64,000 nucleotides of DNA from an uncultured Myxococcales bacterium (GTDB taxonomy: Bacteria > Myxococcota_A > UBA9042 > CAIXZC01), in the NCBI GenBank assembly GCA_903895725.1, contig CAITUV010000048.1, forward strand, positions 8,474-72,473, written 5' to 3'. Positions 3,103-24,651 of this stretch are shown here, one piece after another (within the stretch, counting starts at the first letter, position 1; every line of letters begins with the position of its first letter). The notes under the pieces were generated by a model. The model did not search any database. It had not been told where the DNA came from and saw nothing but the letters and a program-made list of their open reading frames with translations. The position numbers were made by a program, and so were the translations under genes.

Positions 3103-3121
3103 CGTCGCAACGTAGCGGCCG

Positions 3122-3334: not shown

Positions 3335-6300
3335 ATGAAGACGGTACGTGCAGCGCTTGCGCTCATCCTGCCTCTCGTGCTCGTGGCAGCCTGCTCGAGC
3401 AAAGGGGATCCCAAGGCCAAATTCAAGATCGTGTGTGAGCAGAACGGCCTGTGCGAGTGCGTTGAGAATGCCCAGTGTGCGGAGGGGGAGATCTGCTTCA
3501 ACGGGCACTGCGTGCCCTTGCCGGAGGTCACGCAGGACGTCGAGGGAACGGATCTGGGGCGCGTCGACGCAGAATCGGATGGCGGCCTGAAGCCGGGGGC
3601 GTTCAAGTCGCCGTGTGCCACGAACGAGGAATGCGATTCGGGCATCTGCATCGAGATCGCACCGGGGGTCCTCGTCTGCACGCAGCCGTGCGTGGACGAC
3701 TGCCCGGACGGCTGGGAATGCCGAGGGACGAGCCAGGACGACAACGTGGTCCAGTTCTACTGTCTGCCGAAGCAGGACCGGCTGTGTCAGCCGTGCAAGA
3801 CCGACGTGAGCTGCACGGGCACCAAGAACCTCTGCATCGAGATCGGTGGGCTGAACAACTGCGGTCGCGACTGCGCCGAAGTGGCGTGTCCCAACGGCTA
3901 TGTCTGCCAGGACGTGGTGAGCGTCGAGGGGGTCGAAGGCAAGCAGTGCGTGCCGGCAAACGGCCAGTGCCAGTGCACTCCGGAGACGGTGGGGAAGCAG
4001 TTCCAATGCGAGGTGGAGAACGAGCACGGAAGCTGCCCCGGGCTTCAGGTATGTCAGGAGGACGGGTCCCTGACCCCCTGCGATGGCGCCACGGCGGAAC
4101 CCGAGACATGTGATGGCGAGGACAACGACTGCGATGGGTTCGTGGACGAGGGGATCGAGCCCGTGGCGTGCTCCAAGGAGAACGAGAATGGTACGTGCAT
4201 GGGCTCGCAGGTCTGCCTTCCCGGACTGGGGGAAACATGCAAGGCGGCGGAGCCTTCCCCGGACATCTGCGACACGCTGGACAACGACTGTGACGGCAGC
4301 ACCGACGAGGATTTCCGAGACGAGCAGGGAAAGTACTTCCAGACGGAGAACTGCGGAAGCTGCGGCGTCAACTGCAACGGCATGTTCGCCCATGCCGTCG
4401 AGATCAAGTGCTCGATGGAATCGGAGCTGCCGGTCTGTGCAATCGCGAAGTGCGAACCGGGGTATCTCCTCGTGAGCGACACGCTCTGTCTGCCGGCAAT
4501 CCATCACCTCTGCGAGCCGTGCGTGGGCGACTCGGCCTGCGTCGGGCCGGCGGACAAGTGCATGGCCATGAGCCCCGTGGACACGCAGACGTTCTGCGGT
4601 CGGGATTGCTCTGCCGACAACCAGTACGGAGCCGGTTGTCCGGAAGGGTACTCGTGCAAGAAGGTCGAATCGGGCGGTGAGGAATTCGAGCAGTGCGTTC
4701 CGCTCAACGGAACGTGCGATTGCTCGGAGCTCAACGCCGGGCTGGCAAAGCCCTGCAACGTCGTGAACCAGAATGGAACCTGCTTCGGCGTGGCGGTCTG
4801 CGACGCGGCGCTGGGATGGACCGGCTGCACGGCACTGACGCCTCAGGCCGAGGAGTGTGATGGCAAGGACAACGACTGCGATGGCGTGATCGACGAGGAG
4901 CTCAGCGGGAACCCATGCGTGGTCACCAACGAGCTCGGCACGTGCAGTGGAACCGAGGTGTGCGGGGGAGCGCAGGGGCTGATGTGCTCGGCACCCTCTC
5001 CCCAGCTGGACGTATGCGACGGCAAGGACAACGACTGTGACGGAGCGATCGACGAGGATTTCGCCACCAACGTCGTGGACGATGCCGGCGATCTCGTGGC
5101 CCTGGTCTACGACCTGTCGAACGAGCATTGCGGCGCGTGCGGGATTCCGTGTCTGGCCGTGCCGCCGGCGGCCAAGGCCGAATGCTCGGCCGACGGTCTC
5201 GATGCACTCTGCATGGTGGTGGAGTGCCAGGAGGGCTACTATCCGTCGAGTGCCAACAGCTGCCTCCACATCCCGGCATCCAACCTCTGTCTTCCCTGCC
5301 AGCAGGACACGGACTGCCTTGGTCCGAACGACCATTGCCTCTCCTACCCGGAGGGTACGTTCTGCGGCAGGGACTGCTCGGTCGGCAGCATCTATGGCGA
5401 TGCGGACGGTCCCTGCTCCGGAGAGGAAGGGGTCCAGGGATGCTGCCCTGCGGGATACCTCTGCACGGCCGGTCAGTGCCTGCGCGAGTCGCTGTCGTGC
5501 GACTGTAGCGCGGACGGCAAGGTGAAGCTGTGCGACAATGCCAATGCGGAGGGCACGTGCATCGGCGTCAGGACCTGCGTGGTCTCGGGGCCCGATGCGG
5601 GATGGCAGCCGTGCAGCGCCGCCACGCCCCAGCCCGAGGTTTGCGACGGCAAGGACAACGACTGTGATGGGCTCTTCGACATGATCGACCCATCGATCGA
5701 CGTGGCCGGTCTTGCCGGCTACCCCGACTGCTTCAATGTGAGCGAGGCCTGTCCGGGCAAGTGGACCTGCCTCCAGGCGGGCGGGAAGTTCGAGTGGGTC
5801 TGCTCCGCCCCGGAGCCTTCCAATGAGCTCTGCAACGGGCTGGACGATGACTGCGACGGTGCGGTGGACGAAGATTTCAAGGACGAAGCCGGTGTGTTCT
5901 CCCTGCTCGGCCATTGCGGACAATGCGGCCTGGATTGCGCCTCGGCCGTCGCCCACCTGGCCAAGGGGCAGGACGGGAGCGTGCTGCCCGGAGCCGTGAC
6001 GTGCACCGCCATCGGCGGTCAACAGGGCTGCCGGCCCAAGGCCTGTGAGCCCGGGTATTACCTGTTCCCGACGCCGGAAGCGGCAACGGTCTGCTTCCAG
6101 TTGGAGGCGGCCAGCTGCCAGCCATGCGCCCAGGCGACCGATTGCCCGGGGGCCGGCCATGCCTGTGCTTCGGTCGGAGAGGATGCCGGGGCCTATTGCC
6201 TGCAGCGGTGCGATGCCGGATCCCCCTTCCCTGGGTGTACCGGCGAGGAGGGGAAGCAGGGCTGCTGCCCGGCCGGGTTCCTTTGCAGCGAGGTCGGCGG

Positions 6301-8614
6301 CATGCCTCAAGGCCAGGCCTACTGCCTGCCGGTGAGCGGTACCTGCCAGTGCAACGGGCCGAACGTGGGGTTGCAGCGTCCCTGCACGGTGAGCGCGGAT
6401 GGTGGCCTGACTACGTGCTTCGGTATTGCCGAGTGTGCGGACAAGGGAGGAGGCGACATCTCCTGGGGACCTTGTGACACGTCCGCCAACGTCGAGGTTT
6501 GCGACGGCAAGGACAACGACTGCGACGGCGTGGCTGATGACGGCTTCAAGGTCAACGGAAAGTATGCCGGCGACGGCAATTGCGGGCAGTGCGGCAAGAA
6601 CTGCGCTCTGAAATGGAGCGCGCAGAAGCAGCATGCCACTGGCAAGTGCGATGCGATGCTGCCCGGCGGACCGGACTGCGTCCTCGGCTCCTGCACCTTC
6701 GACCTGGTCGGCGGCGGGAAGCTCTGTCTCTCGGATGCCGACTGCGTGGGAGACACGGCGGGTCCGACCTGTCTACCCCAGCTTTTCCAGTGCGGCCGCA
6801 CGTGCACCGGCGATGCCGAATGTGCCGGAGGGGCCTGCATCGGGGGCTGGTGCAGCCCCGCATGCGTGAACACTGCCGCCTGCCAGGCGAAGTTCGGAGC
6901 GTGGTCCTTCTGCCAGCAGGGGCATTGCGTGACCAAGCACCAGTATTTCGACCTGGACGGCTGGACCGGGAACGGTTGCGAATGCCCCGCCATGGCCGGC
7001 CTGACTCTGGATGAGCCGGAGGTGATGCTTACCTATCCCCTCCCGGGTGACAGCTACGTGGACCGGAACTGCGATGGGGTGGACGGGGATGTGGCAACGG
7101 CCCTGTTCGTGGCCGAGGGGGGAGCCGGAGACGGAAGCCGATGGGCTCCGTTCGGCAGCATCCAGAAGGCCATCGACGCGTTCAAGGTCGGCGTTCACAG
7201 CCACATCCTGGTGGCTGCCGGGGCCTATGAAGAGCGGCTCGTTCTCAAGAACGGCGTGAAGATTTTCGGGGGGTACAGCGACGACTTCTCCACTCGGGAC
7301 ATCGTGCTCCTGCCCACCGTGGTTACCGGCCCTGCACCGGATTTCGGCCAGGGTGCGGTCAAGCCGGGGACGGTGTATGCGTCGGCAATCACTCAGGAGA
7401 CGGTGGTGGCCGGGTTGACCATCCTTGGCTACGACGTGCCGCCTGGCGGGACCTCGTCAGGAATGGCCTCCTACGCAGTCTTCATCGAAGGGTCCTCCTC
7501 CGCTCTCCGGCTCCAGAACAACTGGCTGGTCGGAGGTCAGGGCGGTGCGGGAAAGCCGGGAGGCAGCGGACATTCCGGGACCCCCGGCGGGAGCGGTGCG
7601 GTCGGAGCGGCCTCGGCCGAGTGCCTCCCCGGTCCGCTGTGCACGGGGGCGTGCAACAACCTGACGTGCACGGGGTACCTGAAGGCCGGCGGGGCCGGAG
7701 GAACCAACACCGAATGTGCCGCCTCGGTCGGATGTGCAGGCATGGAAGCGGAAGGTGGGGAGAACCCGCAGGTGAAGGATGCGCCGGCACCGGGCTGTAC
7801 GTATGCATCGGGCGGCCAGCAGGCAACCTACGGGGGGGGGCCGGCGAACCTGTGCAAGTATGACTGCACGGTGAGCACGACCATGGTCGGTCCCGGCGGA
7901 GGCGACGGGACGAGCGGCGCCGGGGGGACCGGGGGAAGCGGATGCTCCAGCCCGTTCGGAACGGCGGCCGTTGGCCAGTGGCAGGCCGGGAGCGGGGCCG
8001 TGGGCACGGCGGGAGGGGCCGGGACCGGGGGACAAGGCGGATCGGCCGGCTCGACGGTCGTGAACACCAAGGCCGGGACCTGCACCGTGGGGAACTATGC
8101 CGGCGACCTCGGGGGAAGCGGTGGCGGAGGCGGGGCGGGTGGGTGCGGTGGCTCTGGCGGCCTCAACGGCCAGTCAGGCGGTGCCAGCATGGTGGTCTTC
8201 CTCGCATCCGGAGCCGCAGGGAGCTTCGCCAAGGTGACGGGCAACCTGGTCACTCGGGGGCTCGGTGGGGCCGGCGGCAGCGGCGGTAACGGCGGCAGCG
8301 GCGGAAAGGGTGGAAGCGGCGGCATCGGCGGCACTTCGGGCTGGCCGGCCTGGTGCGCGGGCACGGGCGGTACCGGTGGTCGCGGAGGCGACGGCGCTCC
8401 GGGAGGAGGAGGCGGAGGAGGGTGTGGCGGCCCCTCCATCGGAATCGCCGTCGTCGGCGGCAGCACGGCAGCCTACCTCGCGGAGAACTCGTTCACCCTG
8501 AGCGATTCCACGGCGACCGGCGGTCCCGCAGGCAGCGGCGGAATGAGCGCTGCCGACAATGGAGCGGGCAAGGCGGGAAGCCAGGGCGGAAGCCAGAACG
8601 TGAGGGGGTACTAG
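3335..8614 (+). CDS. Giant cysteine-rich lipoprotein (1759 aa). It has a lipoprotein signal, then four or so Cys-rich super-modules each ending in a CDGxDNDCDG-x-DE (MopE-like, putative metal-binding) motif, then a C-terminal DUF1565-like beta-helix and a poly-Gly (GGxGG) tail.
   Basis: N-terminus 'MKTVRAALALILPLVLVAACSS' (lipobox LVAAC), with an RBS 'GGAGAA' upstream. Repeated motifs 'ETCDGEDNDCDGFVDEG', 'EECDGKDNDCDGVIDEE', 'EVCDGKDNDCDGVADDGF'. 'NCDGVDGDVATALFVAEGGAGDGSRWAPFGSIQKAIDA...ILVAAGAYEERLVL' (beta-helix). C-terminal 'GGAGGSGGNGGSGGKGGSGGIGG...GGGGGGGCGGPSIGIAVVGG'. Strongly GC3-biased sense strand; the antisense ORF is Arg/Ala ghost sequence. Confidence 0.9.
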   Translation: MKTVRAALALILPLVLVAACSSKGDPKAKFKIVCEQNGLCECVENAQCAEGEICFNGHCVPLPEVTQDVEGTDLGRVDAESDGGLKPGAFKSPCATNEECDSGICIEIAPGVLVCTQPCVDDCPDGWECRGTSQDDNVVQFYCLPKQDRLCQPCKTDVSCTGTKNLCIEIGGLNNCGRDCAEVACPNGYVCQDVVSVEGVEGKQCVPANGQCQCTPETVGKQFQCEVENEHGSCPGLQVCQEDGSLTPCDGATAEPETCDGEDNDCDGFVDEGIEPVACSKENENGTCMGSQVCLPGLGETCKAAEPSPDICDTLDNDCDGSTDEDFRDEQGKYFQTENCGSCGVNCNGMFAHAVEIKCSMESELPVCAIAKCEPGYLLVSDTLCLPAIHHLCEPCVGDSACVGPADKCMAMSPVDTQTFCGRDCSADNQYGAGCPEGYSCKKVESGGEEFEQCVPLNGTCDCSELNAGLAKPCNVVNQNGTCFGVAVCDAALGWTGCTALTPQAEECDGKDNDCDGVIDEELSGNPCVVTNELGTCSGTEVCGGAQGLMCSAPSPQLDVCDGKDNDCDGAIDEDFATNVVDDAGDLVALVYDLSNEHCGACGIPCLAVPPAAKAECSADGLDALCMVVECQEGYYPSSANSCLHIPASNLCLPCQQDTDCLGPNDHCLSYPEGTFCGRDCSVGSIYGDADGPCSGEEGVQGCCPAGYLCTAGQCLRESLSCDCSADGKVKLCDNANAEGTCIGVRTCVVSGPDAGWQPCSAATPQPEVCDGKDNDCDGLFDMIDPSIDVAGLAGYPDCFNVSEACPGKWTCLQAGGKFEWVCSAPEPSNELCNGLDDDCDGAVDEDFKDEAGVFSLLGHCGQCGLDCASAVAHLAKGQDGSVLPGAVTCTAIGGQQGCRPKACEPGYYLFPTPEAATVCFQLEAASCQPCAQATDCPGAGHACASVGEDAGAYCLQRCDAGSPFPGCTGEEGKQGCCPAGFLCSEVGGMPQGQAYCLPVSGTCQCNGPNVGLQRPCTVSADGGLTTCFGIAECADKGGGDISWGPCDTSANVEVCDGKDNDCDGVADDGFKVNGKYAGDGNCGQCGKNCALKWSAQKQHATGKCDAMLPGGPDCVLGSCTFDLVGGGKLCLSDADCVGDTAGPTCLPQLFQCGRTCTGDAECAGGACIGGWCSPACVNTAACQAKFGAWSFCQQGHCVTKHQYFDLDGWTGNGCECPAMAGLTLDEPEVMLTYPLPGDSYVDRNCDGVDGDVATALFVAEGGAGDGSRWAPFGSIQKAIDAFKVGVHSHILVAAGAYEERLVLKNGVKIFGGYSDDFSTRDIVLLPTVVTGPAPDFGQGAVKPGTVYASAITQETVVAGLTILGYDVPPGGTSSGMASYAVFIEGSSSALRLQNNWLVGGQGGAGKPGGSGHSGTPGGSGAVGAASAECLPGPLCTGACNNLTCTGYLKAGGAGGTNTECAASVGCAGMEAEGGENPQVKDAPAPGCTYASGGQQATYGGGPANLCKYDCTVSTTMVGPGGGDGTSGAGGTGGSGCSSPFGTAAVGQWQAGSGAVGTAGGAGTGGQGGSAGSTVVNTKAGTCTVGNYAGDLGGSGGGGGAGGCGGSGGLNGQSGGASMVVFLASGAAGSFAKVTGNLVTRGLGGAGGSGGNGGSGGKGGSGGIGGTSGWPAWCAGTGGTGGRGGDGAPGGGGGGGCGGPSIGIAVVGGSTAAYLAENSFTLSDSTATGGPAGSGGMSAADNGAGKAGSQGGSQNVRGY

Positions 8615-8615
8615 A

Positions 8616-11600
8616 ATGAAGACTCTCAACAGCCAGGTCGTTCTGCTCCTCGCCCTGCTCATCGCTTTCTCCTGTTCGTCGGGGACCAAGGTCGAGCAGC
8701 CCGACGTGCCGTGCATCGGGGAGGGGTGTCCCTGCATTTTTGGCGCGGACTGCCCCCAGGGCATGAACTGCATCAACGGGTACTGCAGCAGCGAGAATCC
8801 TTTCGGAGACCTGGGCTTCCCCGATTTCGGGCAGGGCGACGTGGCCGGTGAGGACGGCATCGATGCGAGTGGCAGCGAGGTCGACGCCGGACAGGCGGAG
8901 GTCTTCCAGCCTCTGCCCTTCGGCGACGGTTGCACGAGCAACCTGCAATGCGAGTCCGGCTGGTGCGTGGATTCCCCGGATGGCGGCTACTGCTCGAAGA
9001 CGTGCGACGACGGGTGTCCCGACGGCTGGCTGTGCAAGATCGTCGCCCAGACTTATCCCGACACGATCTCCATCTGCGTCCAGGACAAGACCCGACTCTG
9101 TCTGCCGTGTGAGATCGACTCCCATTGCGGAGATGCCGGCGATCTCTGCCTGGAGATCGGCGGGGGAAAGTTCTGTGGCCGCGACTGTGCGGTGGAGCCG
9201 TGCCCCGGCGGCTACGATTGCCTCGAAGTGCCGTCCACCGGAGGCCCGGTCAAACAATGCGTGCCGTCCACCGGAGCCTGCGACTGCAATGCGACTACGG
9301 TGGGACAGGTAAGGGGCTGCCTCGTCACCAATGAGCTGGGAACCTGCTTCGGCATGGAGCACTGCGACGCGCTGCTGGGCTGGGTCGAGTGCTCGGCCGC
9401 GGTGCCCGAGGCCGAGCTCTGCGACGGCCTCGACAACAACTGCAACGGGCAGCCGGACGAAGGATTCTCAGCGGAGCCCTGTTCTTCAGAGAACGAGCTC
9501 GGCACCTGCGTCGGAACCCGTACGTGCCAGGGGGGCGCCGGCTGGGTATGCTCCGCCCCGACTCCGGCGAAGGAAGCGTGCAACGGGCTTGACGACGACT
9601 GCGACGACCAGGTCGACGAGGGGTTCGTCGACGACCAGGGGGCCTACCTCGACGTCGAGAACTGCGGCATGTGCGGCAACTCCTGCCTCGCCAAGTTCGT
9701 GGGTGCTGCGGAGGTGGCTTGCGTGCTCGTAGAGGGGGAGGAGAAGTGCAAGCTGCTGAGCTGCCTGCCCGGCTACTTCATGTTTAACGAGAGCACCTGC
9801 CTGGACGAAGATTCCTTCCTTTGTCAGGTCTGCAACAGCGATGACGACTGCTATGGAGAGTTGTCCAAGTGCCTGCCGGCAAGTGCCACCGACCCCAGGA
9901 CCTTCTGCTTCCGGGACTGCAGCGGCAATGGGGAGTTCAGCCCCACCTGTCCGGGCGGATACACGTGCACCGAAGCGGCGGGGGGAACGCTGTGCCTGCC
10001 CGACAACGGGAGCTGTGACTGCTCCGAAGGGAACGCAGGGCAGACCAAGGGGTGCTCCGTGGAGAACGGGCTCGGCATCTGCTTTGGAACCGAGACGTGC
10101 GAGCCGGAACTGGGATGGACCGGGTGCTCCGCAATGACCCCGTCTCCCGAGGTGTGCGACGGCATCGACAATGACTGCGATGGCGTCATGGACGAGGATA
10201 CGACCCTGGGCGAGCCTTGCCAGACCGCCAACGAGAACGGAACCTGCACGGGAATCGAGCAGTGCGCCGGTCCGATGGGGCTCGTGTGCTCCGCCGCAGT
10301 GCCCGCATCCGAGGTGTGCGACGGCCAGGACAACAACTGCGATGGGAGCACCGACGAGGGATTTGCCGTTCTCGCAGGCGACCCCCCGGTGCTCAAGTAC
10401 GGGCTGAGCCCCAGCCACTGCGGAGCATGCAACTACGAATGCCCCGGGGTCGCCCATGGGACGGTGAAATGCGACCCGATTCCAGCGGTTCCCGCCTGCA
10501 CCGTGGACCAGTGCGATGCCGGCTACTTCGACTACCTCGGTGTGGCCTGTCTGCCTGTCCCGGTTGCAAACCTGTGCGCCCCTTGCCAGGGGGATTCCGA
10601 TTGCCAGGGCCCGGACGATTCCTGCATCGCCGAGCCGGACGGCGCTTCCTTCTGCGGCCGGGACTGCGGCCCGGACAGCATCTACGGAATCGACGGGGCC
10701 GTCTGCACTGGTGTTCCCGGCCAGCAGGGGTGCTGCCCGGACGAGTATCTCTGCCAGGCTGCGGGGACCGGCTTCCAGTGCCGCCCTGTGAGCGGAACCT
10801 GCACGTGCATCGAGGACGGAAAGACCAAGGCGTGCACGGTCGCCAATGCGAACGGCGAGTGCATGGGAATCACGACCTGCTCGGCCTCCGGTCCAAACCC
10901 GGGCTGGAGCGCGTGCAGCGCACAGACGCCTGCGCCGGAAGCGTGCGACGGGTTGGACAACGACTGTGACGGGGCCATCGATGGCCAGGACCCATCGCTC
11001 GGCTTCGCTGGCACGCCCAACGGGTCCCCCGACTGCGCAACGGGTCCCGCCTGCCTCGGCGCCTGGCTCTGCCTGGCCGGGGAGTGGCAATGCACCGCCC
11101 TGGCCGCCTTGCCCGAGAAGTGCGACGGCCTCGACAATGATTGCGACGGAGTGACGGACGAAGGCTTCCTGATCGACGGTCAGTACCAGACCGCCCAGCA
11201 CTGCGGTGCGTGCGGGTACGATTGCCTCCAGCTCATCCCGCACAGCATCGGTCCGCTATGCTCCGTGGCGTCGGGAAAGCCGCAGTGCGTGGCAAGCCAG
11301 TGCGAGCCCGGGTACTTCCCCTACGGCGGTGGAAAGGCCTGCATGAAGCTCCCTGACAATCTCTGCCAGCCGTGCGGCTCCGACGCCGATTGCCTTGTGC
11401 CGTCCAGCCGCTGCGTCGTGCTGGGGCAGGAGATGGTGTGCGGCCGGGACTGCTCGCCAACGAGCCCCTACGGCCAGGTCTGCCCTGCCGGGTACTCCTG
11501 CTTCGCCGCCGGAGCGGTTCAGCAGTGCGTCCCCGATTCCGGGACGTGCGTGTGCGGACCGGACACCGTCGGGTTGTCTCGCTCCTGCACCGATGGCTCG

Positions 11601-13661
11601 TGCATCGGTCAGCAGGTCTGCCAGCAGGTCGGCGGCTCCTACGAGTTCTCACCTTGCTCGGCCGAAGGGGTCGTCGCCGAAGTATGTGACGGCAAAGACA
11701 ACGACTGCGACTCTAAGGTCGACGAGGGGTTCGTCGACCCGCTCGGCAAGTACGTGTCGGACGAGAACTGCGGCGTATGTGGCAACAACTGTCTGGCTCA
11801 GCTCAATGTGCCGGTCCATCATGCCACCGGCGAATGCAACACGTCCATCGACCCGCCCGCCTGCCGCATCGAGCAATGCTCGACCGAGGTGGAGGCAGGC
11901 ACGCTCTACGAGTGGGTGGACGTGAACCAGGTCATGGACGACGGCTGCGAGTGCCGGCGCATCCAGGGGAACTTGACGCAGGACGACCCCGACACCGTGT
12001 TTATCCAGCCGGGCGACATCGCACCGAGCTTCCCTCCCCCGCTCGCCGAGTACGTGGATGCCAACTGCGACGGAGTGGACGGCGTGATGGCTCATGCGCT
12101 CTTCGTGAGCGCTGCGGGCACGGCTCAGGGTACCGGGACTATGGCCTCCCCCTACAAGACCATCGGCCAGGCGGTGAAGGCATTTGCCGCCAGCGGTGCG
12201 AAGTACATCCTCGTAGCGGGGGGCGTCTACCAGGAGAACGTGAAGCTGGAGCCCGGAATCCGGATGCACGGCGGGTATTCGCACGACTTCCAGGCCCGGG
12301 ACATCGTCCTGTTCCCGACCGAGATCCTGGGGTTGCCGCCGGCCCTTGCCGGGGGGGTGACCGGCTCACTGAATGCCGAGGGGATCACCGGCAAGGCGAC
12401 GTTGGTGAGCGGATTCGTGATTCACGGCTACGACGTACTGACGGTTCCCGGGACCGGACCGGGCGAAAGCTCATACGGGGTCTTCGTGAGCGACTCCGAT
12501 TCCAGCCTCGAGATCCGGAACTGCAACCTGGTGGGCGGCGGAGGCGGCCCGGGGGCCAACGGCTCCAACGGGGCCACCGGATTCGGCAGTCTCTCGCAGG
12601 GAGGCAGCCAGCTCAACGCCGCTGCCGGAGTCAATGCGGGGAGCTGCGTGGCCGGGACGTGCACCACCAGCAAGGCATCGGGAGGGGCCGGCGGGACCAA
12701 CCCGCAGTGCGCCGTGGCCAACGGACCGGCCGGTGGCGGCGTAATCTGTCCGGAGTACAACAAGCCGTCGTACACGCCCGTCAATCCAGGGCTCGACGGA
12801 GCCCCCGGGTATAGCTGGACGCTGGACAGCCTGTCTTCGGGCGGGTGCTACGGTCACGCGACCGAGGCCGGCTACCCGACTGCCATCAAGAAGATGGATG
12901 GGGGCGACGGCAGCGCTGGGGCCGACGGAGCTGGCGGGCTCCAGGGGTCAGGCTGTGCCGCGGTCGCCGGTGCCTTCGTCAATGGGCTGTGGAAGGGAGC
13001 TGCCGGAGCCGGGGGAGCCGGCGGTATCGAAGGCCAGGGGGGAGGTAGCGGCGGTTCCTCCGGAGGCGTCGACACGGCATCCGCTGCCGAGATGCCACCC
13101 GGAGTCGGGGCGTACGGTGGGGCCTCGTACAAGCTCGGTGCCACAGGCGGTGGCGGCGGTGCAGGCGGATGCGGAGGCAAGGGGGGGACCGGCGGAGAGA
13201 GCGGAGGGGCCAGCATTGCCCTTCTCGTCCGGTTCTCTTCGCCCCAGGCCGTGACCAGCGCCCCCGTCGTCGCTGCCAACCTCGTGGAGCGCGGGTACGG
13301 CGGAAGCGGCGGCAACGGCGGGTACGGAGGTCTCGGCGGCAAGGGCGGCAACGGCGGCAACGGCGGAACCGCACCGGGGTACTGGATCGACTTCAAGGCC
13401 GGCAAGGGAGGCCGAGGAGGCCAGGGAGGCGAGGGCGGTGGCGGAGGAGGAGGCTGCGGCGGCGCTTCGTTCGGGATTGCGGCAGCCAACTATCCCGCTG
13501 CGTGGAACATCCCCTATGCCACCGCCAACGAGTTCGCTCTGGCCGAGGCAACCAAGACCGGAGGCGTGGGCGGAAAGGCCGGAGCGTCTGGAACGGCCAA
13601 CCCGGCCGGTGACGGCCAGGATGGCGGCACCGTGAACGTCTCCTTCTCACCGGCCCCCTGA
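8616..13661 (+). CDS. Giant cysteine-rich lipoprotein paralog (1681 aa) with the same architecture as 3335..8614. It starts 1 nt after the upstream stop.
   Basis: RBS 'GAGGGGG' 7 nt before ATG 8616. 'MKTLNSQVVLLLALLIAFSCSSG' (lipobox). Repeated 'CDGLDNNCNGQPDEGF', 'ACNGLDDDCDDQVDEGF', 'EVCDGIDNDCDGVMDED', 'EVCDGKDNDCDSKVDEGF'. 'NCDGVDGVMAHALFVSAAGTAQGTGTMASPYKTIGQAVKA...ILVAGGVYQENVKL'. Gly-rich tail with 'GGGGGAGGCGGKGG' and 'GGGGGGGCGGASFGIAAANY'. Confidence 0.9.
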   Translation: MKTLNSQVVLLLALLIAFSCSSGTKVEQPDVPCIGEGCPCIFGADCPQGMNCINGYCSSENPFGDLGFPDFGQGDVAGEDGIDASGSEVDAGQAEVFQPLPFGDGCTSNLQCESGWCVDSPDGGYCSKTCDDGCPDGWLCKIVAQTYPDTISICVQDKTRLCLPCEIDSHCGDAGDLCLEIGGGKFCGRDCAVEPCPGGYDCLEVPSTGGPVKQCVPSTGACDCNATTVGQVRGCLVTNELGTCFGMEHCDALLGWVECSAAVPEAELCDGLDNNCNGQPDEGFSAEPCSSENELGTCVGTRTCQGGAGWVCSAPTPAKEACNGLDDDCDDQVDEGFVDDQGAYLDVENCGMCGNSCLAKFVGAAEVACVLVEGEEKCKLLSCLPGYFMFNESTCLDEDSFLCQVCNSDDDCYGELSKCLPASATDPRTFCFRDCSGNGEFSPTCPGGYTCTEAAGGTLCLPDNGSCDCSEGNAGQTKGCSVENGLGICFGTETCEPELGWTGCSAMTPSPEVCDGIDNDCDGVMDEDTTLGEPCQTANENGTCTGIEQCAGPMGLVCSAAVPASEVCDGQDNNCDGSTDEGFAVLAGDPPVLKYGLSPSHCGACNYECPGVAHGTVKCDPIPAVPACTVDQCDAGYFDYLGVACLPVPVANLCAPCQGDSDCQGPDDSCIAEPDGASFCGRDCGPDSIYGIDGAVCTGVPGQQGCCPDEYLCQAAGTGFQCRPVSGTCTCIEDGKTKACTVANANGECMGITTCSASGPNPGWSACSAQTPAPEACDGLDNDCDGAIDGQDPSLGFAGTPNGSPDCATGPACLGAWLCLAGEWQCTALAALPEKCDGLDNDCDGVTDEGFLIDGQYQTAQHCGACGYDCLQLIPHSIGPLCSVASGKPQCVASQCEPGYFPYGGGKACMKLPDNLCQPCGSDADCLVPSSRCVVLGQEMVCGRDCSPTSPYGQVCPAGYSCFAAGAVQQCVPDSGTCVCGPDTVGLSRSCTDGSCIGQQVCQQVGGSYEFSPCSAEGVVAEVCDGKDNDCDSKVDEGFVDPLGKYVSDENCGVCGNNCLAQLNVPVHHATGECNTSIDPPACRIEQCSTEVEAGTLYEWVDVNQVMDDGCECRRIQGNLTQDDPDTVFIQPGDIAPSFPPPLAEYVDANCDGVDGVMAHALFVSAAGTAQGTGTMASPYKTIGQAVKAFAASGAKYILVAGGVYQENVKLEPGIRMHGGYSHDFQARDIVLFPTEILGLPPALAGGVTGSLNAEGITGKATLVSGFVIHGYDVLTVPGTGPGESSYGVFVSDSDSSLEIRNCNLVGGGGGPGANGSNGATGFGSLSQGGSQLNAAAGVNAGSCVAGTCTTSKASGGAGGTNPQCAVANGPAGGGVICPEYNKPSYTPVNPGLDGAPGYSWTLDSLSSGGCYGHATEAGYPTAIKKMDGGDGSAGADGAGGLQGSGCAAVAGAFVNGLWKGAAGAGGAGGIEGQGGGSGGSSGGVDTASAAEMPPGVGAYGGASYKLGATGGGGGAGGCGGKGGTGGESGGASIALLVRFSSPQAVTSAPVVAANLVERGYGGSGGNGGYGGLGGKGGNGGNGGTAPGYWIDFKAGKGGRGGQGGEGGGGGGGCGGASFGIAAANYPAAWNIPYATANEFALAEATKTGGVGGKAGASGTANPAGDGQDGGTVNVSFSPAP

Positions 13662-13688
13662 CCCAACGGTCTCCACCGCCCTTCTTGA

Positions 13689-13968: not shown

Positions 13969-13972
13969 GCGA

Positions 13973-14947: not shown

Positions 14948-15345
14948 CGGTCAGCCGTCTCCAGGTTAGAGCCACAGGCCAGGGCCGCCTCGTCGGGACG
15001 GGAGGCCGAACCGAGACCCCGAGGATACTGCATCTCGAGCACGCTGTGAAGCGCTCTGACGTGGTGTGTCGTCCCGATGGAAATCCTGTCCTGCCGACCC
15101 ACGTGGCGCAACCCGGTCGGAGTTGCTGTGACAGAGACGCCGGGGGTCACCGCCGCAGAGGGCGGGGCCAGCGAGGGAGCCGTCCGCTGGGCACTCGGGG
15201 CACTGAGGGACTGCGCTCGGCACAGGGCAGGTCCCGCAAGCCCGACCGGTCGGTCGAAAAGCGCTTGAACCCCGGCAGTGGATGTGCTTTGATCAACAGG
15301 AGTTGGCGCCCGAGTTACTTTCCCCTTTGCAGCGGAGTGGAACCC

Positions 15346-18195: not shown

Positions 18196-18200
18196 GGGGG

Positions 18201-19094
18201 ATGGTCATGCCTGGCCGCACTGCGCTTTTGGGATGGACGGTTCTGATGGTGACAGGGCTGGCCTCGTGCAGCAGCCAGTCCGAAGGCTCCGGAGGCCCTG
18301 AACACGAGGCTTCCTGCAAGTCCATCTGCCAGTTCCACGCCGAGTGCGAGAAGACCTGCTTCCTGGACGAGGAGCCCGACTGCGACGAGCAGAAGAACTA
18401 CGACTTCATCTTCGGCCAGTGCCAGCCGGCCTGCTCAGCGGGAGAGCCGCTGCTCGGCGGGGCCTGTGCGGGAGCCGCTGCAATGCTCGCCACATGCTTC
18501 GAGGGCAAGAGCTGCTCGGCTGGGCTCGGCGATGCCTGCCGCATCGATGACATGCGTTACCGGGAGCTGTGCCTCGAGAAACCCGGGGAGCATGTCTGCC
18601 GCAACTTCTCCGTCGAGCTCGAGATCGGCTGCCTTCCCTACGGGCTCTTCGGCTTTCGAGGCACCGGCTGCGAGGAGGCGTGTAAGGCCTCCGCAGCGGA
18701 CCTCGAGTGTCTCGAAGCGCACTATGCGCTGGACGAGTGCACCGAGGGGATGCTGTTCTCGTGCGGTGCCTGGAGCGGAGAGTGTGCTGACGAGGCAGGC
18801 GCCGTGGCCGAAGCATGCGAGGCCTGGCAGCCGGTCGAGCCGGAACCGGAGGAGCAGTCCTTCTGCGCCGGCATTGCTGAGCACCAGTGCGACTGCGGTC
18901 TGTTTTCCGGAGAAGAGTGCGTGACCCTGGCAGCGGGCCGATGTCTGTTTGCCCTCGGTCACGGGAGCGACTGCAGAAAGTCCATGGAGTCGTTCGACGC
19001 CTGCATGACAGGCATCGAGTCGTGCGACCGCGACAAGCTGCGGGACGAGTGTCTGCCCCAATGGGATGCCTGGAATGAGGCGTGCCACCAGTAG
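18201..19094 (+). CDS. Small cysteine-rich lipoprotein (297 aa, about 40 Cys) of unknown function.
   Basis: RBS 'AAGGGGGA' then ATG. 'MVMPGRTALLGWTVLMVTGLASCSS'. It starts 6 nt after the stop of the upstream gene. Confidence 0.75.
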   Translation: MVMPGRTALLGWTVLMVTGLASCSSQSEGSGGPEHEASCKSICQFHAECEKTCFLDEEPDCDEQKNYDFIFGQCQPACSAGEPLLGGACAGAAAMLATCFEGKSCSAGLGDACRIDDMRYRELCLEKPGEHVCRNFSVELEIGCLPYGLFGFRGTGCEEACKASAADLECLEAHYALDECTEGMLFSCGAWSGECADEAGAVAEACEAWQPVEPEPEEQSFCAGIAEHQCDCGLFSGEECVTLAAGRCLFALGHGSDCRKSMESFDACMTGIESCDRDKLRDECLPQWDAWNEACHQ

Positions 19095-19095
19095 C

Positions 19096-19117
19096 GGGGG
19101 CGGAGCGGGCGGCCCCC
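19096..19117 (+). terminator. Hairpin GGGGGC-(10 nt)-GCCCCC immediately after the stop at 19094.
   Basis: Perfect 6-bp GC stem read from the sequence. No U-tract. Confidence 0.25.
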
Positions 19118-19248
19118 TCGGCTGGCGGGAACGTCCGCACACCGGGCCCTCGGCACGCCGGGCTACACTTTGGAGCCCAGACCGACTAGAATCAATCAGG
19201 CGAGGAACCGGTCCCGGTCCTCGAGCTTCCCGGGGAGAGGAGGTCGGT

Positions 19249-22200
19249 ATGGAAAGACTCAGTCGACATCTCTGGCTTGTCTGCGGGATCGGCGGCGGCT
19301 TGCTGGCGTTCTCCTGCTCGTCGTCGAAGCCGGGGTCGAACCCGCATTTCGACATCGGACAACAAGACGTCCCGGGGGAAGACGGAAACGCTGACCGGGG
19401 CGGGCAGGACGAGCAGTTCGGCGACGGCACTCCACTACCCTATGACATCGGGGAGGCGGCGGCGTTGTGCATGCAGGAGCCGTTCGGGTTCGGCTGTCCA
19501 TGCGGAACCAATGCCCAGTGCGCCGGGGGGTTCTGCATGCAGAGTGAGTTCGGCTTCATCTGCACGCAGGAGTGCGTCGAGGAGTGCCCGGACCCGACCT
19601 ATGAATGCAAGGGCATCTCCGGCTTCGGCCCGGACGTGGTCTTCCTGTGCGTCCCCAAGGTCCAGCCCATGTGCCTGGAGTGTGAGCAGGACTACCAGTG
19701 CGGCGAGGGCGTCTGCGCCAAGATCGGGGACGGCAAGCATTGCACCGTGTCGTGCGGGCCGGACAAGCCCTGCCCGCTGGGCTACGTGTGCCCCGAGGGG
19801 ACCGTCGAGCCCACGTGCATGCCCGTCTCCGGGGATTGTGCGTGCATCCCCAAGACCGCTGGCGACCTGCGGACATGCGACGTGGTCAACGAGGACGGAG
19901 TCTGTGAAGGCGTCGAGGTGTGCGATGCCGAGCTGGGCTGGAGCGGGTGCACCGCAGGCGTTCCGGCTGCCGAGGTCTGTGACGGAGTCGACAACGACTG
20001 CAACGGAAAGGTGGACGACGCACTCGGAGCGCCTCCCGCCTGCAGTCAGGAGATTCCGGACGTGGGCAGCTGCCCGGGAGTGTCGATCTGCCTCGGTGCC
20101 GAGGGGTGGAAGTGCGATGCGCCCACGCCTTCGCCGGAAACCTGTGACTTCCAGGACAATGACTGCGACGGAGAGGTCGACGAGGACTTCAAGGCGGACG
20201 GGAAGTACGCGGCGCTGAACCACTGCGGAACGTGCAACCATGACTGTACCGGGACGCTGCCTCATGCCACGGCTTCCTGCGACGGGAGCAAGTCGATTCC
20301 GGTCTGCGTTGTGGAATCGTGCGACGAGGGTTACTTCCCGATCAACGAATTTCAGTGCCTCCCGCTGGGCCAGGTGCTGTGCAAGCCCTGCGCAGCCGAC
20401 ATCGAATGCCAGGGGGGAAGCTGCCTGGAGGTCTTTGGCGCGAGCTTCTGCTCGAAGAGCTGCGAAGCGGACCCCTGTCCCGAGACCTTTGAGTGCAAGG
20501 CGGTCGACGGTGCGGTGGGGCAGTGGTGTCTGCCCGTGACCGACACGTGCGACTGCTTCAGCGAGCTTGCGGGTACCGAGCGCCCCTGTCTCGCAACCGG
20601 CGATGAAGGGAGCTGTCCGGGCATGCAGACCTGCGACCCGCTGGTGGGATGGTCCGCATGCAGCGCCCAGCCACCGTCCGCCGAGGTTTGCGACGGGCTG
20701 GACAACGACTGCGACGGGGTCCCGGACGACGGCCTGGGAAACGCGGAGGCCTGCACCAAGTCCACTCCCGGCATCGGCACGTGCGACGGGGTGAAATACT
20801 GTGCGGGAGCGCCAGGGTGGGTGTGCGACGCACCGCAGCCCGCGCTCGAGACGTGCGACTACCTGGACAACGACTGTGACGGCGAGGTGGACGAGGGGTT
20901 CGTGATTGACGGCAAGTACACCACGGCGCAGCACTGCGGCGCCTGCAACAAGAGCTGCGACGGTGCGCTGCCCCACGCCACTGCCTACTGCGACACCTTT
21001 GCCCCCGTGCCCTCGTGCCGGGTGCTCGAGTGCGACCCGGGCTACTACAAGCTCAACGACCTGCAGTGCATCCTGCCCCAGGACACGGCCTGCAGTCAGT
21101 GCCTCGGGGACGATGAGTGCTTCTTCGCCAAGTGCGTGCCGCTGGCGGACGGCTCATTCTGCCTGAATCCGTGCGACGAGGGAGCCTGTGCCGAGGGATT
21201 CCAGTGCGAGGTCATCGAGGGCATCGGTGAAGCGTGCGTCCCGGACAGCGGAAGCTGCCTGTGCACCGAGGCGTCGAAGGGAACTCAGAAAGGATGCAGT
21301 CTCGGAAACGAGCACGGAGTGTGCTTCGGGTACGAGACGTGCGACCCGCCGCTTGGGTGGACAGGGTGCACCGCAGCGGTCCCTGCGGCAGAGGAGTGCG
21401 ACGGCGTGGACAGCGACTGTGATGGGCTCGTGGACGAGGGGCTTCCCGTCTCGCAGCCGTGCGACAACTCCAATGAGTTCGGAAGCTGTGCGGGGGAAGC
21501 CGTATGCTTTGGCCAGCAGGGGTGGCAGTGCCTGGCTGCCGTGCCGGTGGCGGAGCTCTGCAATTACAAGGACGATGACTGCGACGGGCTCGTGGACGAG
21601 GACTTCCGCGACGACGGGAAGTACACGAAGCTCGAGCACTGCGGGGTGTGCAACAACGACTGCACCGGCTCGATTCCGAACGCCACGGCCAAATGCGACA
21701 CGACGTATCTCCAGCCCAAGTGCGTCGTGGACCTTTGCGACGCAGGGTATGTCGCTGCCGGTCCATTCCAGTGCCTGAAGCCGCTCGACACCACGTGCCA
21801 GGCGTGCAAGAGCAATGCCGACTGCCTCGGGGGCGAGTGCGTGACCATCGACGGAGCCTTGCGGTGTGCGGCCGCGTGTGCGGACGATTCGGGCTGCGGA
21901 GGCGAGAACGCCTGCCTGCCTTACCCGGGCCTGGGCAAGCTCTGCCAGCCGATGTCGGGCAGCTGCGAATGCAACTCCGCATCCGCCGGAGGCAAGCAGT
22001 GGTGCTCCAGCTCCAATGAGTTCGGTACCTGCGTCGGCTTCAGGACGTGTGACCCAGCGAAGGGCTGGTCGGACTGCAACGCGGCCCTGGCCAAGCCCGA
22101 GGAGTGCAACGGCCTGGACGACAACTGCAACTCGCTGGTCGACGACGGGCTTCCCGAGAGCAAGGACTGCGAGAAGGGAAACCAATGGGGCTCCTGCAAG

Positions 22201-24651
22201 GGAATGGCCGTTTGCCTCGGGAATCTGGGGTGGGTCTGCCAGGCGCTTGAAGCTCAGCCGGAGATTTGTGATTTCAAGGACAATGACTGCGATACGCTGG
22301 TGGACGAGGACTTCAAGGATGCGATGGGCAAGTACTCCACCTTCGAGCATTGCGGTTCCTGCAACGTGTCGTGCAAGTTCGGATTCCCCAACGCAACGGC
22401 CGTGTGCGACGCAAAGCTCGACGCTCCGGAGTGCGTCGTCGAGTCCTGCAACCCCGGGTACTACAAGATTAACGCGTACCAGTGCGTGGCCAACACCTCC
22501 AAGCTCTGCGACTCGTGCGTGATCGACGACAACTGCGGCGGAGACGGTGCCCTCTGCATCCAGCTCCCAGAGGGCAAGTACTGCGGAAAGACCTGCAAGG
22601 GCAACGCCGACTGTCCGGCCGGGTACGGCTGCAAGCCGTTCGCAGGGAGCCTGCAATGCGTACCGCTCACCAACTCGTGCGAGTGCGACGGGAGCAACAC
22701 TCAGCTCTCGAAGAAGTGCTCTGCCACGTGGCCTCCCGAGCCTGCGGAGGGCGAGTCGTTTGTCGTATGTTACGGAACGCAGGCCTGCACGGCGCAGGGG
22801 TGGACCGAATGTCAGCTTCCCGACGACGTGTGCGATGCCCTGGACAACGACTGCAACGGGGCCATCGACGACGGCTTCCTGGTCGATGGAAAGTACGTGG
22901 ACGATACCAACTGCGGCCAGTGCGGCAACAACTGCACGTTCCTGCAGTTCCCGAATGCAATCGGCGTATGCGATGCCCAGAAGGCGGTACCGGACTGCGT
23001 GATGGATTGCCAGCCCGGCTGGCAGGACGTCAACGACAATCCGGCCGACGGGTGCGAGTGCTTCCCTCTCCCGGGTCCCGACGTCCCGGACGGTATCGAC
23101 CAGAACTGTGATGGCGTGGACGGCCAGATCGATGCAGCAATCTTCGTTGCCAAGAACGGGTCGGACCTGAGCCCCGGGACCATCGATGCCCCCATGCTGA
23201 CTCTGACCGCGGCAATCGCCAGATCCCTTCAGACTGGGAAGAGCGACGTCTACGTGGCCACGGGAGTCTACAGCGGTTCGATCCAGCTCAAACCCGGAGT
23301 GCGCCTCTACGGCGGATACACATCGGATTTCAAGAAGCACGACTCCATCCTGGCCGAGACGGTCATCATGGGCGGTGCGTATTCGGCCGAGTCCCCGGGG
23401 GCGGTGAATGCCATTGGCATCAGCGGCGGGCCGGGGACGACCGTGCTGGCCGGGTTCACCGTATTCGGAAAGAACAACAACACGCCCGGAGGAAGCAGCT
23501 ACGCTCTGTACGTCCGCAACTGCACCAATGCGCTCGTGGTGTCCGACAATCGAGTCGTGAGCGGGGCCGGCGGCAACGGCAGCGGCGGTCTGAGCGGTGC
23601 CAACGGGGTGAGCGGTCAGGCCGGCAGCAACGGGGGCAATGCGTACGGGGTGAACACCGGCAACTGCGGCTCGGTGCAGCCTCCGTTCCCGCGGCCGGGA
23701 GGAGGTGGCGGTGCCGGCACCTGCAATGCGGGGAGTGCCACGGCCGGCGGACAGGGTGGGGGGAACACCTGCCCAAGCACCTACAATGCGGCCCCGGTGG
23801 CCTACGAGAACGGCTCAGCCGGCTCGGGTACCGCACCGGGAGGAGGCGGTGCGGGCGGATACGACCGCGAGGTATGGTACTGCAGCAGCTTCCCAGGGGG
23901 CGAGTGCCACCAGGCGACCGGCGGAAACGAAGTCGGCAACGCGGGGGCAATGGGCGGAATCGGTTCGAACGGAAACACGGCAAGCGGGAACGGTTGCTCG
24001 GCGGCTGCGGCCCAGGGACAGCTGGTCGGCGGTCTATGGGGAGGCGGTGGCGGGCTCGCCGGAGGGAACGGCGCCAATGGCAGCGGTGGCGGTGGCGGCG
24101 GTGCGGGGGGCGGGGCGCAGGACGGCTCCGGATGCTCTGGAAGGACCCAGGTCGGCGGCACCGGAGGCGGCGGAGGGTCGGGTGGTTGCGGCGGAACGGG
24201 CGGTGCGGGCGGTGCCCCGGGCGGCGGCTCGTTCGGCCTGTTCATCGTATGGGATGCACCGCCCGCAACCATTCCCCAGGTGATGTACAACGGGTTTGAC
24301 GGCAGCGTGGGCGGCGCAGGCGGCTCCGGTGGCAACGGCGGCTCTGGCGGGCCGGGCGGTGCCGGCGGCTCCGGTGGTGCCGAGGACTATGCCAACGCCA
24401 AGTGCGCTGCACCCGGCGGCAACGGCGGCAATGGTGGCAACGGCGGACACGGCGAGGGCGGTGGGGGCGGCTGCGGCGGTGCCTCCTACTGCATCTTCGC
24501 ATCCGGCCAGGGGGGAGCCAGCCTCGCTGCCTACAAGGATTCCAACTCGTTCGTTGTCGGAGCCGGAGGCCCGGGAGGTGCCGGTGGTGCTTCGATCGGC
24601 AACCCGGGAGATCCGGGGCAGGCCGGAGCAGCAGCCAACGCCAACTACTGA
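19249..24651 (+). CDS. Third giant cysteine-rich lipoprotein paralog (about 1800 aa) with MopE-like CDGxDNDCDG modules, a beta-helix and a poly-Gly tail.
   Basis: The track ORF starts at 19066. An in-frame ATG at 19249 is preceded by 'GGGGAGAGGAGG' and followed by 'MERLSRHLWLVCGIGGGLLAFSCSSS' (lipobox). 'EVCDGVDNDCNGKVDD', 'ETCDFQDNDCDGEVDEDF', 'ETCDYLDNDCDGEVDEGF', 'EICDFKDNDCDTLVDEDF'. 'NCDGVDGQIDAAIFVAKNGSDLSPGTIDAPMLTLTAAIA...VYVATGVYSGSIQL'. Gly tail with 'GGGGGGAGGGAQDGSGC' and 'GGGGGCGGASYCIFASG'. Confidence 0.9.
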   Translation: MERLSRHLWLVCGIGGGLLAFSCSSSKPGSNPHFDIGQQDVPGEDGNADRGGQDEQFGDGTPLPYDIGEAAALCMQEPFGFGCPCGTNAQCAGGFCMQSEFGFICTQECVEECPDPTYECKGISGFGPDVVFLCVPKVQPMCLECEQDYQCGEGVCAKIGDGKHCTVSCGPDKPCPLGYVCPEGTVEPTCMPVSGDCACIPKTAGDLRTCDVVNEDGVCEGVEVCDAELGWSGCTAGVPAAEVCDGVDNDCNGKVDDALGAPPACSQEIPDVGSCPGVSICLGAEGWKCDAPTPSPETCDFQDNDCDGEVDEDFKADGKYAALNHCGTCNHDCTGTLPHATASCDGSKSIPVCVVESCDEGYFPINEFQCLPLGQVLCKPCAADIECQGGSCLEVFGASFCSKSCEADPCPETFECKAVDGAVGQWCLPVTDTCDCFSELAGTERPCLATGDEGSCPGMQTCDPLVGWSACSAQPPSAEVCDGLDNDCDGVPDDGLGNAEACTKSTPGIGTCDGVKYCAGAPGWVCDAPQPALETCDYLDNDCDGEVDEGFVIDGKYTTAQHCGACNKSCDGALPHATAYCDTFAPVPSCRVLECDPGYYKLNDLQCILPQDTACSQCLGDDECFFAKCVPLADGSFCLNPCDEGACAEGFQCEVIEGIGEACVPDSGSCLCTEASKGTQKGCSLGNEHGVCFGYETCDPPLGWTGCTAAVPAAEECDGVDSDCDGLVDEGLPVSQPCDNSNEFGSCAGEAVCFGQQGWQCLAAVPVAELCNYKDDDCDGLVDEDFRDDGKYTKLEHCGVCNNDCTGSIPNATAKCDTTYLQPKCVVDLCDAGYVAAGPFQCLKPLDTTCQACKSNADCLGGECVTIDGALRCAAACADDSGCGGENACLPYPGLGKLCQPMSGSCECNSASAGGKQWCSSSNEFGTCVGFRTCDPAKGWSDCNAALAKPEECNGLDDNCNSLVDDGLPESKDCEKGNQWGSCKGMAVCLGNLGWVCQALEAQPEICDFKDNDCDTLVDEDFKDAMGKYSTFEHCGSCNVSCKFGFPNATAVCDAKLDAPECVVESCNPGYYKINAYQCVANTSKLCDSCVIDDNCGGDGALCIQLPEGKYCGKTCKGNADCPAGYGCKPFAGSLQCVPLTNSCECDGSNTQLSKKCSATWPPEPAEGESFVVCYGTQACTAQGWTECQLPDDVCDALDNDCNGAIDDGFLVDGKYVDDTNCGQCGNNCTFLQFPNAIGVCDAQKAVPDCVMDCQPGWQDVNDNPADGCECFPLPGPDVPDGIDQNCDGVDGQIDAAIFVAKNGSDLSPGTIDAPMLTLTAAIARSLQTGKSDVYVATGVYSGSIQLKPGVRLYGGYTSDFKKHDSILAETVIMGGAYSAESPGAVNAIGISGGPGTTVLAGFTVFGKNNNTPGGSSYALYVRNCTNALVVSDNRVVSGAGGNGSGGLSGANGVSGQAGSNGGNAYGVNTGNCGSVQPPFPRPGGGGGAGTCNAGSATAGGQGGGNTCPSTYNAAPVAYENGSAGSGTAPGGGGAGGYDREVWYCSSFPGGECHQATGGNEVGNAGAMGGIGSNGNTASGNGCSAAAAQGQLVGGLWGGGGGLAGGNGANGSGGGGGGAGGGAQDGSGCSGRTQVGGTGGGGGSGGCGGTGGAGGAPGGGSFGLFIVWDAPPATIPQVMYNGFDGSVGGAGGSGGNGGSGGPGGAGGSGGAEDYANAKCAAPGGNGGNGGNGGHGEGGGGGCGGASYCIFASGQGGASLAAYKDSNSFVVGAGGPGGAGGASIGNPGDPGQAGAAANANY

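Follow-up and report, generated by a model that had tools for sequence, protein, structure and literature searches.

Genomes of Myxococcota are rich in giant cysteine-rich lipoproteins that carry the name 'MopE-related'. Surface families that vary by phase or antigen include opa/pilS of Neisseria, msp2 of Anaplasma and vlp/vsp of Mycoplasma, and glycine lattices of the polyglycine II (PGII) type have so far been described in antifreeze proteins, in the tips of phage adhesins, in the ALK receptor and, by prediction, in PGRS domains. The domains of the mycobacterial PE_PGRS proteins were predicted by AlphaFold as a 'PGII sandwich' (PMC9436101). In Myxococcus xanthus the cell-surface receptor TraA, encoded in the traAB operon, combines cysteine-rich repeats, proposed to form a rigid stalk, with a lectin-like head, and requires the partner protein TraB (PMC3325183). 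The present analysis concerns three genes for giant lipoproteins, A, B and C (Table 1), located in a stretch of 64,000 nucleotides from an uncultured Myxococcales bacterium (GenBank assembly GCA_903895725.1, contig CAITUV010000048.1, positions 8,474 to 72,473 of the forward strand), which is referred to as the window. A preliminary description of this DNA had presented the three as tandem duplicates that might undergo gene conversion or phase-variable expression.

Comparison with homologs from other genomes placed A, B and C among a known but uncharacterised kind of protein, the 'MopE-related' giant lipoproteins of Myxococcota, and a literature search found no publication on this giant-lipoprotein family. 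We favour the reading that they are ancient and stable lipid-anchored proteins built of a stalk and a binding head, with A and B forming a conserved unit.

Divergence of the three genes and the A-B pair

The open reading frames (ORFs), the A/B junction and the protein alignments bore out the existence of three giant paralogs, with A and B one nucleotide apart and C 5.6 kb downstream. Full-length alignment gave protein identities of 40% (A/B), 34% (A/C) and 37% (B/C) with E = 0 for each pair, and judged by these alignments the paralogy far exceeds chance. At the junction the sequence is TAC TAG a ATG AAG, leaving a single nucleotide between the genes, and a Shine-Dalgarno-like GAGGGGG lies at 8602-8608, inside the 3' end of A and seven bases before the ATG of B. 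The gap between B and C is 5,587 nt. The longest reading of the C frame, 19066..24651, would give at most 1861 residues; the signal peptide and lipobox begin at M62 of this frame, whose ATG (19249) follows GGAGAGGAGG and is the start used for C in public gene calls. The G+C content was ~66% across the whole window.

Homologs found with A numbered 925, all from metagenomes or metagenome-assembled genomes, and those with names were labelled Myxococcota, Deltaproteobacteria or 'MopE-related protein'. A scan of genome contigs with A, informative for taxonomy only, was swamped because the CDGKDNDC pattern is ubiquitous, and most of its matches were distant relatives from short contigs. The homologs were of three types by length, A-type proteins having 1732-1803 residues, B-type 1674-1711 and C-type 1794-2976, the last range reflecting a variable number of the repeated super-modules described below. 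Orthologs in other genomes were identical to A at 46-73%, to B at 49-72% and to C at 44-79%. A neighbour-joining tree of the C-terminal tails separated the three types into clades with 100/100 bootstrap support each; the A, B and C of the window fell one per clade, and every clade included orthologs from other Myxococcota metagenome contigs. Orthologs were more alike than paralogs in every comparison made, with A-A orthologs 50-55% and B-B orthologs 52-57% identical compared to 36-43% for any A-B pair, and the A-B identity within a genome (38-43%) was about equal to that between genomes (36-40%). Because orthologs exceed A-B paralogs, whether the latter are taken within or between genomes, the duplication is older than the divergence of these genomes, and concerted evolution, in which paralogs of one genome would be closer than orthologs, was not seen. 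A, B and C thus probably represent three old subfamilies within a single large family of giant lipoproteins, seen so far in uncultured Myxococcota; the tandem duplication and divergence first proposed fits these data as an ancient event.

At the DNA level the copies were uniformly and highly diverged. Codon-aligned identity was 0.557 (A/B), 0.526 (A/C) and 0.535 (B/C), with a standard deviation of 0.06 and a maximum of 0.72 over 50-codon windows and a third-position identity of 0.44-0.46. Long tracts of high identity among A, B and C were not found by blastn, which gave patches of 64-75% identity up to 400 nt in length together with 28-47-nt matches at the MopE motif, and the longest exact word common to copies was 19-21 nt, again on MopE-motif codons. 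These values bear on the proposal of a variable surface-antigen system, operating by gene conversion among the paralogs or by phase-variable switching of their expression. Tandem surface paralogs with repetitive GC-rich DNA coding for glycine would suit such a system, as would the short patches of 36-44 nt at the MopE-motif codons (88-94% identity), a G9 tract in A at 7832 and the position of C, which is not the same in this genome as in its closest relative; the overall divergence of the copies, their lack of concerted evolution and the features of the flanking DNA speak against it. No simple-sequence repeats were present in the scanned region, no long inverted repeats flanked the promoters, where those seen were short and chance-like, and no recombinase or insertion sequence element was found among the window ORFs scanned with Pfam. 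An identical A protein was carried by six contigs.

The G9 tract (7832-7840, TAC GGG GGG GGG CCG) encodes the three glycines of YGGGP and is the only homopolymer of at least nine nucleotides between 2900 and 25000. It was considered as a slippage switch and rejected, as it is absent from six A orthologs and lies at about residue 1500 of 1759.

Selection was measured against the closest relative (L088), in which amino acid identity was 73% for A, 72% for B and 79% for C. The dN/dS ratio was 0.15 for A, 0.17 for B and 0.11 for C, and 0.09-0.22 in every domain, these being approximate values with dS near saturation (about 1.2). Such ratios indicate purifying selection that is uniform along each gene, with no hypervariable domain. 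Both the gene conversion and the phase variation of the preliminary description are largely refuted for A, B and C by these comparisons, and the chance that the genes form a variable surface-antigen system appears extremely remote. The diversity of the family more probably stems from ancient duplication and a changing number of stalk modules than from ongoing conversion or on/off switching.

Gene order was compared in loci retrieved through exact-protein look-ups. In each of the eight genomes examined B came directly after A, at a spacing of -17 to +15 nt: +1 in the window and in L088, +12 in L082, -17 in L084 (as called), +15 in L085, +10 on the contig carrying P0076, about +10 in L090 when the lipobox-containing start is used, and -1 (TGATG) in L091. 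A short A-like protein at a contig end (P0110) was not counted for this pairing. A fusion of A and B by programmed frameshift or readthrough was considered and ruled out, since neither the spacer length nor the relative frame (+1, +10, +12, +15, -1, -17) is conserved. As most of the eight loci have unrelated flanking genes, the pair is the conserved unit, and from this gene order A-B is probably an old two-gene unit that is translationally coupled. Given the tight junctions, A and B would be co-transcribed and made in matched amounts, acting together. Because of this coupled, matched production they are likely to be partners and not alternatives, as two chains in one heteromeric surface fibre would be, for example.

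The position of C was less constant. In L088 C follows B at 146 nt and the 5.6-kb segment is lacking; the interval there (15047-15192) keeps only the last ~48 nt of a 57-aa ORF, right after the B stop. In the window the segment holds this ORF of 57 aa, a Cys-rich ORF of 324 aa on the - strand, a 949-aa FGE-sulfatase/Dicty_CTDC protein and an ORF of 295 aa. Comparison of the two intervals points to an insertion or deletion with one breakpoint within the 57-aa ORF. No C-type gene was present within the 5-10 kb retrieved downstream of B in the remaining loci. C is a third, independently conserved type that adjoins the A-B pair in this lineage by happenstance. The uniform divergence and invariant arrangement expected of an ancient, stable family were therefore largely observed, the A-B order holding throughout and only the position of C departing from it.

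The spacer upstream of A, 232 nt in length, contains two copies of a 33-nt GC-rich element (3120-3152 and 3173-3205) that are 82% identical. Each copy is an imperfect palindrome, CGGGGCAGGTGCTCCC(T/C)GCC, and the predicted folding energy of these elements was no better than that of shuffled sequences (z -0.33). Promoter and terminator scans with RNA folding of the spacers upstream of A and downstream of B gave counts at the shuffle expectation (z -0.3 and -1.4), and Rfam and tRNA scans of the window gave no match.

Predicted anchor, stalk and head

A, B and C have a common layout of a lipobox, Cys-rich super-modules containing the CDGxDNDCDG motif (Pfam MopE), a right-handed beta-helix and a Gly-rich tail. 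The domain order is the same in all three, as first described, while the repeat count differs, there being four super-modules in A and B and five in C. The lipobox Cys is at residue 20 in A and B and at residue 23 in C, in each case with Ser at +2. The PROSITE-style pattern {DERK}(6)-[LIVMFWSTAG](2)-[LIVMFYSTAGCQ]-[AGS]-C matched 11 of the 12 proteins checked (A, B, C and eight of nine orthologs). By this match A, B and C have the sequence signature of a bacterial lipoprotein, in which the signal peptide ends in a lipobox whose Cys is invariant. In Myxococcus, lipoproteins with Lys at +2 stay in the inner membrane; the Ser of A, B and C would be compatible with an N-terminal lipid anchor at the outer membrane or cell surface. 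The proteins contain ~9% Cys and ~17% Gly, and such an extreme Cys content is typical of oxidised, extracytoplasmic proteins.

The super-modules are 240-275 residues in length and consist of a CxPC-initiated Cys-rich domain, two MopE motifs ~53 residues apart and an xCGxCG segment, with the final super-module carrying one motif only. In A, modules 1-3 have two CDGxDNDCDG motifs each and module 4 has one, an xCGxCG segment closes each module, and the four align mutually at 36-48% identity. Pattern matching gave 7, 7 and 9 motif cores in A, B and C. The sole Pfam family recognised in the full proteins was PF11617 (Cu-binding_MopE), in 5-6 stretches per protein at 77.3, 94.9 and 97.0 bits for A, B and C, above the gathering threshold of 27 bits; no NCBIfam family scored above threshold on the full proteins. 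One sub-threshold LIC10774 match and one DUF5972 match, obtained in the Pfam and NCBIfam searches of the proteins and C-terminal regions, were dismissed.

The 'putative metal-binding motif' of PF11617, with its 5-6 significant stretches per protein and its acidic Asp-rich motifs beside thrombospondin type-3-like repeats in a neighbouring paralog, would allow a role in metal handling, in which copper or other metals are bound or sequestered at the surface. The resemblance to MopE is confined to a 30-residue motif, and a super-module profile searched against PDB sequences found nothing at E <= 1, MopE included. The D/N-rich motif presumably resembles a Ca2+-type structural site and not a Cu site, no copper-homeostasis genes were found nearby in the Pfam scans of the window, and the head rather than the motif array is the most conserved part of the family. 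Metal handling thus has only a very slim chance of being the function. By analogy with the thrombospondin type-3 repeats that co-occur in the neighbouring paralog, the D/N-rich motifs may bind Ca2+ structurally. The super-modules would then form a long stalk held by disulfides and probably also by Ca2+, with a length that differs among family members.

A Cys-rich linker, longer in A-type than in B-type proteins and modelled with a lower predicted local distance difference test score (37-80), leads to the conserved C-terminal head of ~500 residues, in which a beta-helix would run on into a glycine-lattice (Gxx)n domain. The beta-helix region comprises ~150-200 residues with an alternating hydrophobic pattern. 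Its structural matches, which include many lyases and phage depolymerases, aligned over 170-190 residues at 12-18% identity, and the models support the presence of a right-handed beta-helix of the pectin-lyase fold in the head. Neither PF07602 (DUF1565) nor any other beta-helix Pfam family matched the C-terminal regions of A, B and C at E <= 10, and PF07602 was matched by one of 22 family members (1.8e-6). The DUF1565-like helix of the preliminary description consequently holds at the level of fold or clan only, DUF1565 being at best a distant relative.

The poly-Gly tail was confirmed, the last 365-380 residues containing 32-38% Gly with a period-3 (Gxx) autocorrelation and each tail holding 8-11 runs of at least three Gxx triplets. 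The tail was confidently predicted with little regular secondary structure. No Pfam or NCBIfam family covers its ~370 residues, the PDB sequence search matched only artificial GGS linkers, and there was no significant solved structural neighbour, the Foldseek matches in the PDB being limited to antifreeze proteins with polyproline II (PPII)/PGII bundles (7jjv and 3bog). These matches, the period-3 spacing of Gly and the origin of many relatives in lake metagenomes would fit structural parts of the envelope or matrix, such as an S-layer-like coat or fibres, in which a flat glycine lattice self-assembles or binds ice or mineral. The tails carry subfamily-specific Cys-rich inserts that break any flat repeat, and a structural role of this kind is improbable.

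Of the cluster representatives, 11,457 matched a profile of the C-terminal module (614 positions) at E <= 1e-3; the number was 5,455 at a cut-off of 1e-10 and 1,352 at 1e-30. The module was C-terminal in nearly all of the 150 matches listed, in host proteins of 463-4398 residues. Across these matches the family is constant in the head and variable in the stalk.

The extreme C-termini differed between types. Among the proteins examined, those of the A-type and most of the C-type have the ending N-(V/L/A)-x-x-(Y/F), its last residue being aromatic; one C-type protein ends in Leu. Those of the B-type orthologs compared are variable, often V-P-(A-P/N), and never aromatic.

Table 1. Positions of the features of A, B, C and their relatives in the window.
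Feature	Position	Strand	Description	Basis
Gene A, A-type giant lipoprotein	3335..8614	+	1759 aa, 161 Cys, 304 Gly	ORF, translation, orthologs
Signal peptide and lipobox of A	3335..3394	+	LVAAC, Cys20, +2 Ser	PROSITE-style pattern match
Four Cys-rich super-modules of A	3782-4507, 4508-5284, 5285-6112, 6113-6721	+		motifs, alignment, PF11617, direct-repeat families D2-D6
Cys-rich linker of A	6722..7084	+		alignment, model secondary structure
Right-handed parallel beta-helix of A	7085..7516	+	pectin-lyase fold (predicted), running on into tail	
Gly-rich (Gxx)n tail of A	7517..8611	+	365 aa, 34% Gly, invariant Gly/Cys/Trp columns	
A/B junction	8602..8618	+	Shine-Dalgarno-like GAGGGGG, TAG stop, 1 nt, ATG of B	sequence and equivalents in seven other genomes
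Gene B, B-type giant lipoprotein	8616..13661	+	1681 aa	ORF, translation, orthologs
Gly-rich tail of B	12519-13658	+		
B-C segment	13662..19248	.	5.6 kb, four ORFs	gene calls in L001, Pfam, comparison with L088
Gene C, C-type giant lipoprotein	19249..24651	+	1800 aa	ORF, start codon, Shine-Dalgarno sequence, cluster representative of 1800 aa
Gly-rich tail of C	23545-24648	+		
C-terminal end residues	A 8597-8611, B 13644-13658, C 24634-24648			
Lipoprotein with GGGWT head	52110-55955	+	1271-1281 aa; 9 MopE motifs, thrombospondin type-3 repeats	
Lipoprotein with ALK-like head	55963-59682	+	1229-1239 aa; C-terminal part about 58850-59679	
Long ORF	59697-63998	-	appears to be two genes in one frame	

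Proposed function and neighbouring genes

The preliminary description had left out further relatives in the window with the same N-terminal module, the last three entries of Table 1. Two of these lipoproteins share the module with A, B and C at 33-39% identity and carry different heads. One has a fibrinogen/intelectin-like GGGWT head (NF040941, 60.9 bits; Xenopus lectin XEEL, PDB 4wmo, E 2.5e-5). The other carries Dicty_CTDC / myxo_disulf repeats and a head homologous to the TNF-like and glycine-rich extracellular domain of the human receptor kinases ALK/LTK (PDB 7mzy, E 5.5e-17), which Pfam at E <= 0.001 did not flag. The comparison suggests interchangeable heads on a common anchor and stalk. 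In the long ORF on the opposite strand, the upstream part has DUF4214 and four MopE repeats and ends with a MYXO-CTERM sorting tag (TIGR03901, 21.7 bits); a second part begins in frame with a new signal peptide and lipobox and continues as a DUF5648-containing protein. The MYXO-CTERM tag, like the names of related metagenome-assembled genomes, speaks for a Myxococcota origin of the DNA.

The head of A, B and C may bind an extracellular ligand, probably a glycan, more likely than it performs catalysis. Binding is favoured by the invariant columns past the start of the beta-helix, nearly all of which are Gly, Cys, Trp or Pro and which include no conserved acid/base set, by the non-enzymatic adhesin PfbA, which scores as well as enzymes among the structural matches of the helix, and by the lectin-type heads of the window relatives. 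Several neighbours are related to glycans, namely SASA, GH141/CBM6/CBM35 and FGE-sulfatase-like proteins beside A, B and C, NAGPA further along the window and GH31 near one C-type ortholog. These genes fit a glycan ligand and an enzymatic head equally well. In the latter case the heads would be lipid-anchored extracellular polysaccharide enzymes of the pectin-lyase fold (lyase, hydrolase, esterase or epimerase) whose substrate comes from prey, from biofilm or from the cell's own exopolysaccharide, and the stalk a mere spacer. The SASA esterase, the GH141/CBM6/CBM35 protein and the GH31 neighbour support such a role, which is opposed by the 12-18% identity to any such enzyme and by the failure of A, B and C to match any CAZy-type Pfam family. 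Within the helix D188 and R192 are the only nearly invariant charged residues, other conserved positions being Gly, Cys or hydrophobic. An enzymatic head is unlikely, with a real if minor chance of being correct.

Several points weigh against reading A, B and C as stable lipid-anchored stalk-and-head proteins with a conserved A-B unit. The structures are predicted models based on shallow alignments (19-22 sequences), the support for the lipid anchor is a pattern match, and the dN/dS ratios are approximate as stated. A C-type gene 63% identical to C stands alone elsewhere, and since C-type proteins occur alone, members of the family do not in general need a partner.

The wider window is chromosomal housekeeping DNA, with the nuo operon, a DEAD-box helicase, the his operon and purH. 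On the 5' side of A (window 1-3102, + strand; L001 1056-9768) there are three large proteins of the secreted type: a SASA esterase with MopE, an FG-GAP protein, and a GH141-like beta-helix protein with CBM6/CBM35 and FG-GAP. The GH141/CBM6 gene is absent from L088.

Comparison with known systems

As a candidate switching or recombining surface system the locus is ordinary. It resembles the opa/pilS, msp2 and vlp/vsp families in having several tandem genes for surface-anchored repetitive proteins, and differs from them in lacking the features that define those families at the sequence level. PF11617/'MopE-related' proteins are a closer match, with the CDGxDNDCDG motif in 7-9 copies per protein above the Pfam threshold and several homologs so named by NCBI. 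MopE of Methylococcus itself shares only the 30-residue motif and has no counterpart of the super-module, the beta-helix or the Gly-rich tail; A, B and C in turn are found without a copper-related context. The pectin-lyase-fold proteins compared, DUF1565 (PF07602), PL9 Pel9A (1ru4), pectin methylesterase (1qjv) and the adhesin PfbA (3zpp), are 12-18% identical to the heads and are without the glycine-lattice domain of 365-380 residues, and A, B and C have no recognisable catalytic set.

TraA is likewise a protein of the myxobacterial envelope, with Cys-rich tandem repeats that are proposed to form a rigid stalk presenting a binding domain, and it serves as a working analogy only. The two are not homologous, TraA having an N-terminal PA14 head, TIGR04201 repeats and a C-terminal MYXO-CTERM anchor, whereas A, B and C have an N-terminal lipobox anchor and a C-terminal head. 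TraB is an OmpA-like protein and not a paralog of TraA, while A and B are paralogs, and TraA is highly polymorphic, unlike A, B and C. The A-B pair, conserved, tightly abutting and moving between genomic contexts, predicts a two-component surface structure. A further-reaching proposal, which we regard as doubtful, is that A and B are obligate partners in a heteromeric lipid-anchored fibre. Its tip would be an undescribed fold, a beta-helix passing into a PGII-like glycine-lattice solenoid, and would define a large domain family of Myxococcota, with >1,300 clusters at 50% identity, that recognises glycans or cell surfaces.

The Gly-rich tail of ~370 residues defines a family of thousands of proteins, and its structure would show whether PGII-type lattices serve widely in predatory and social bacteria. 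In its (GGX)n sequence, with Gly at every third residue, the tail is like the PGII/PPII bundles of the springtail antifreeze proteins (7jjv, 3bog), the adhesin tip gp38 of phage S16 (6f45) and PE_PGRS. The similarity to the PGRS domains extends to the (GGX)n pattern, yet the tail of A, B and C evolves conservatively.

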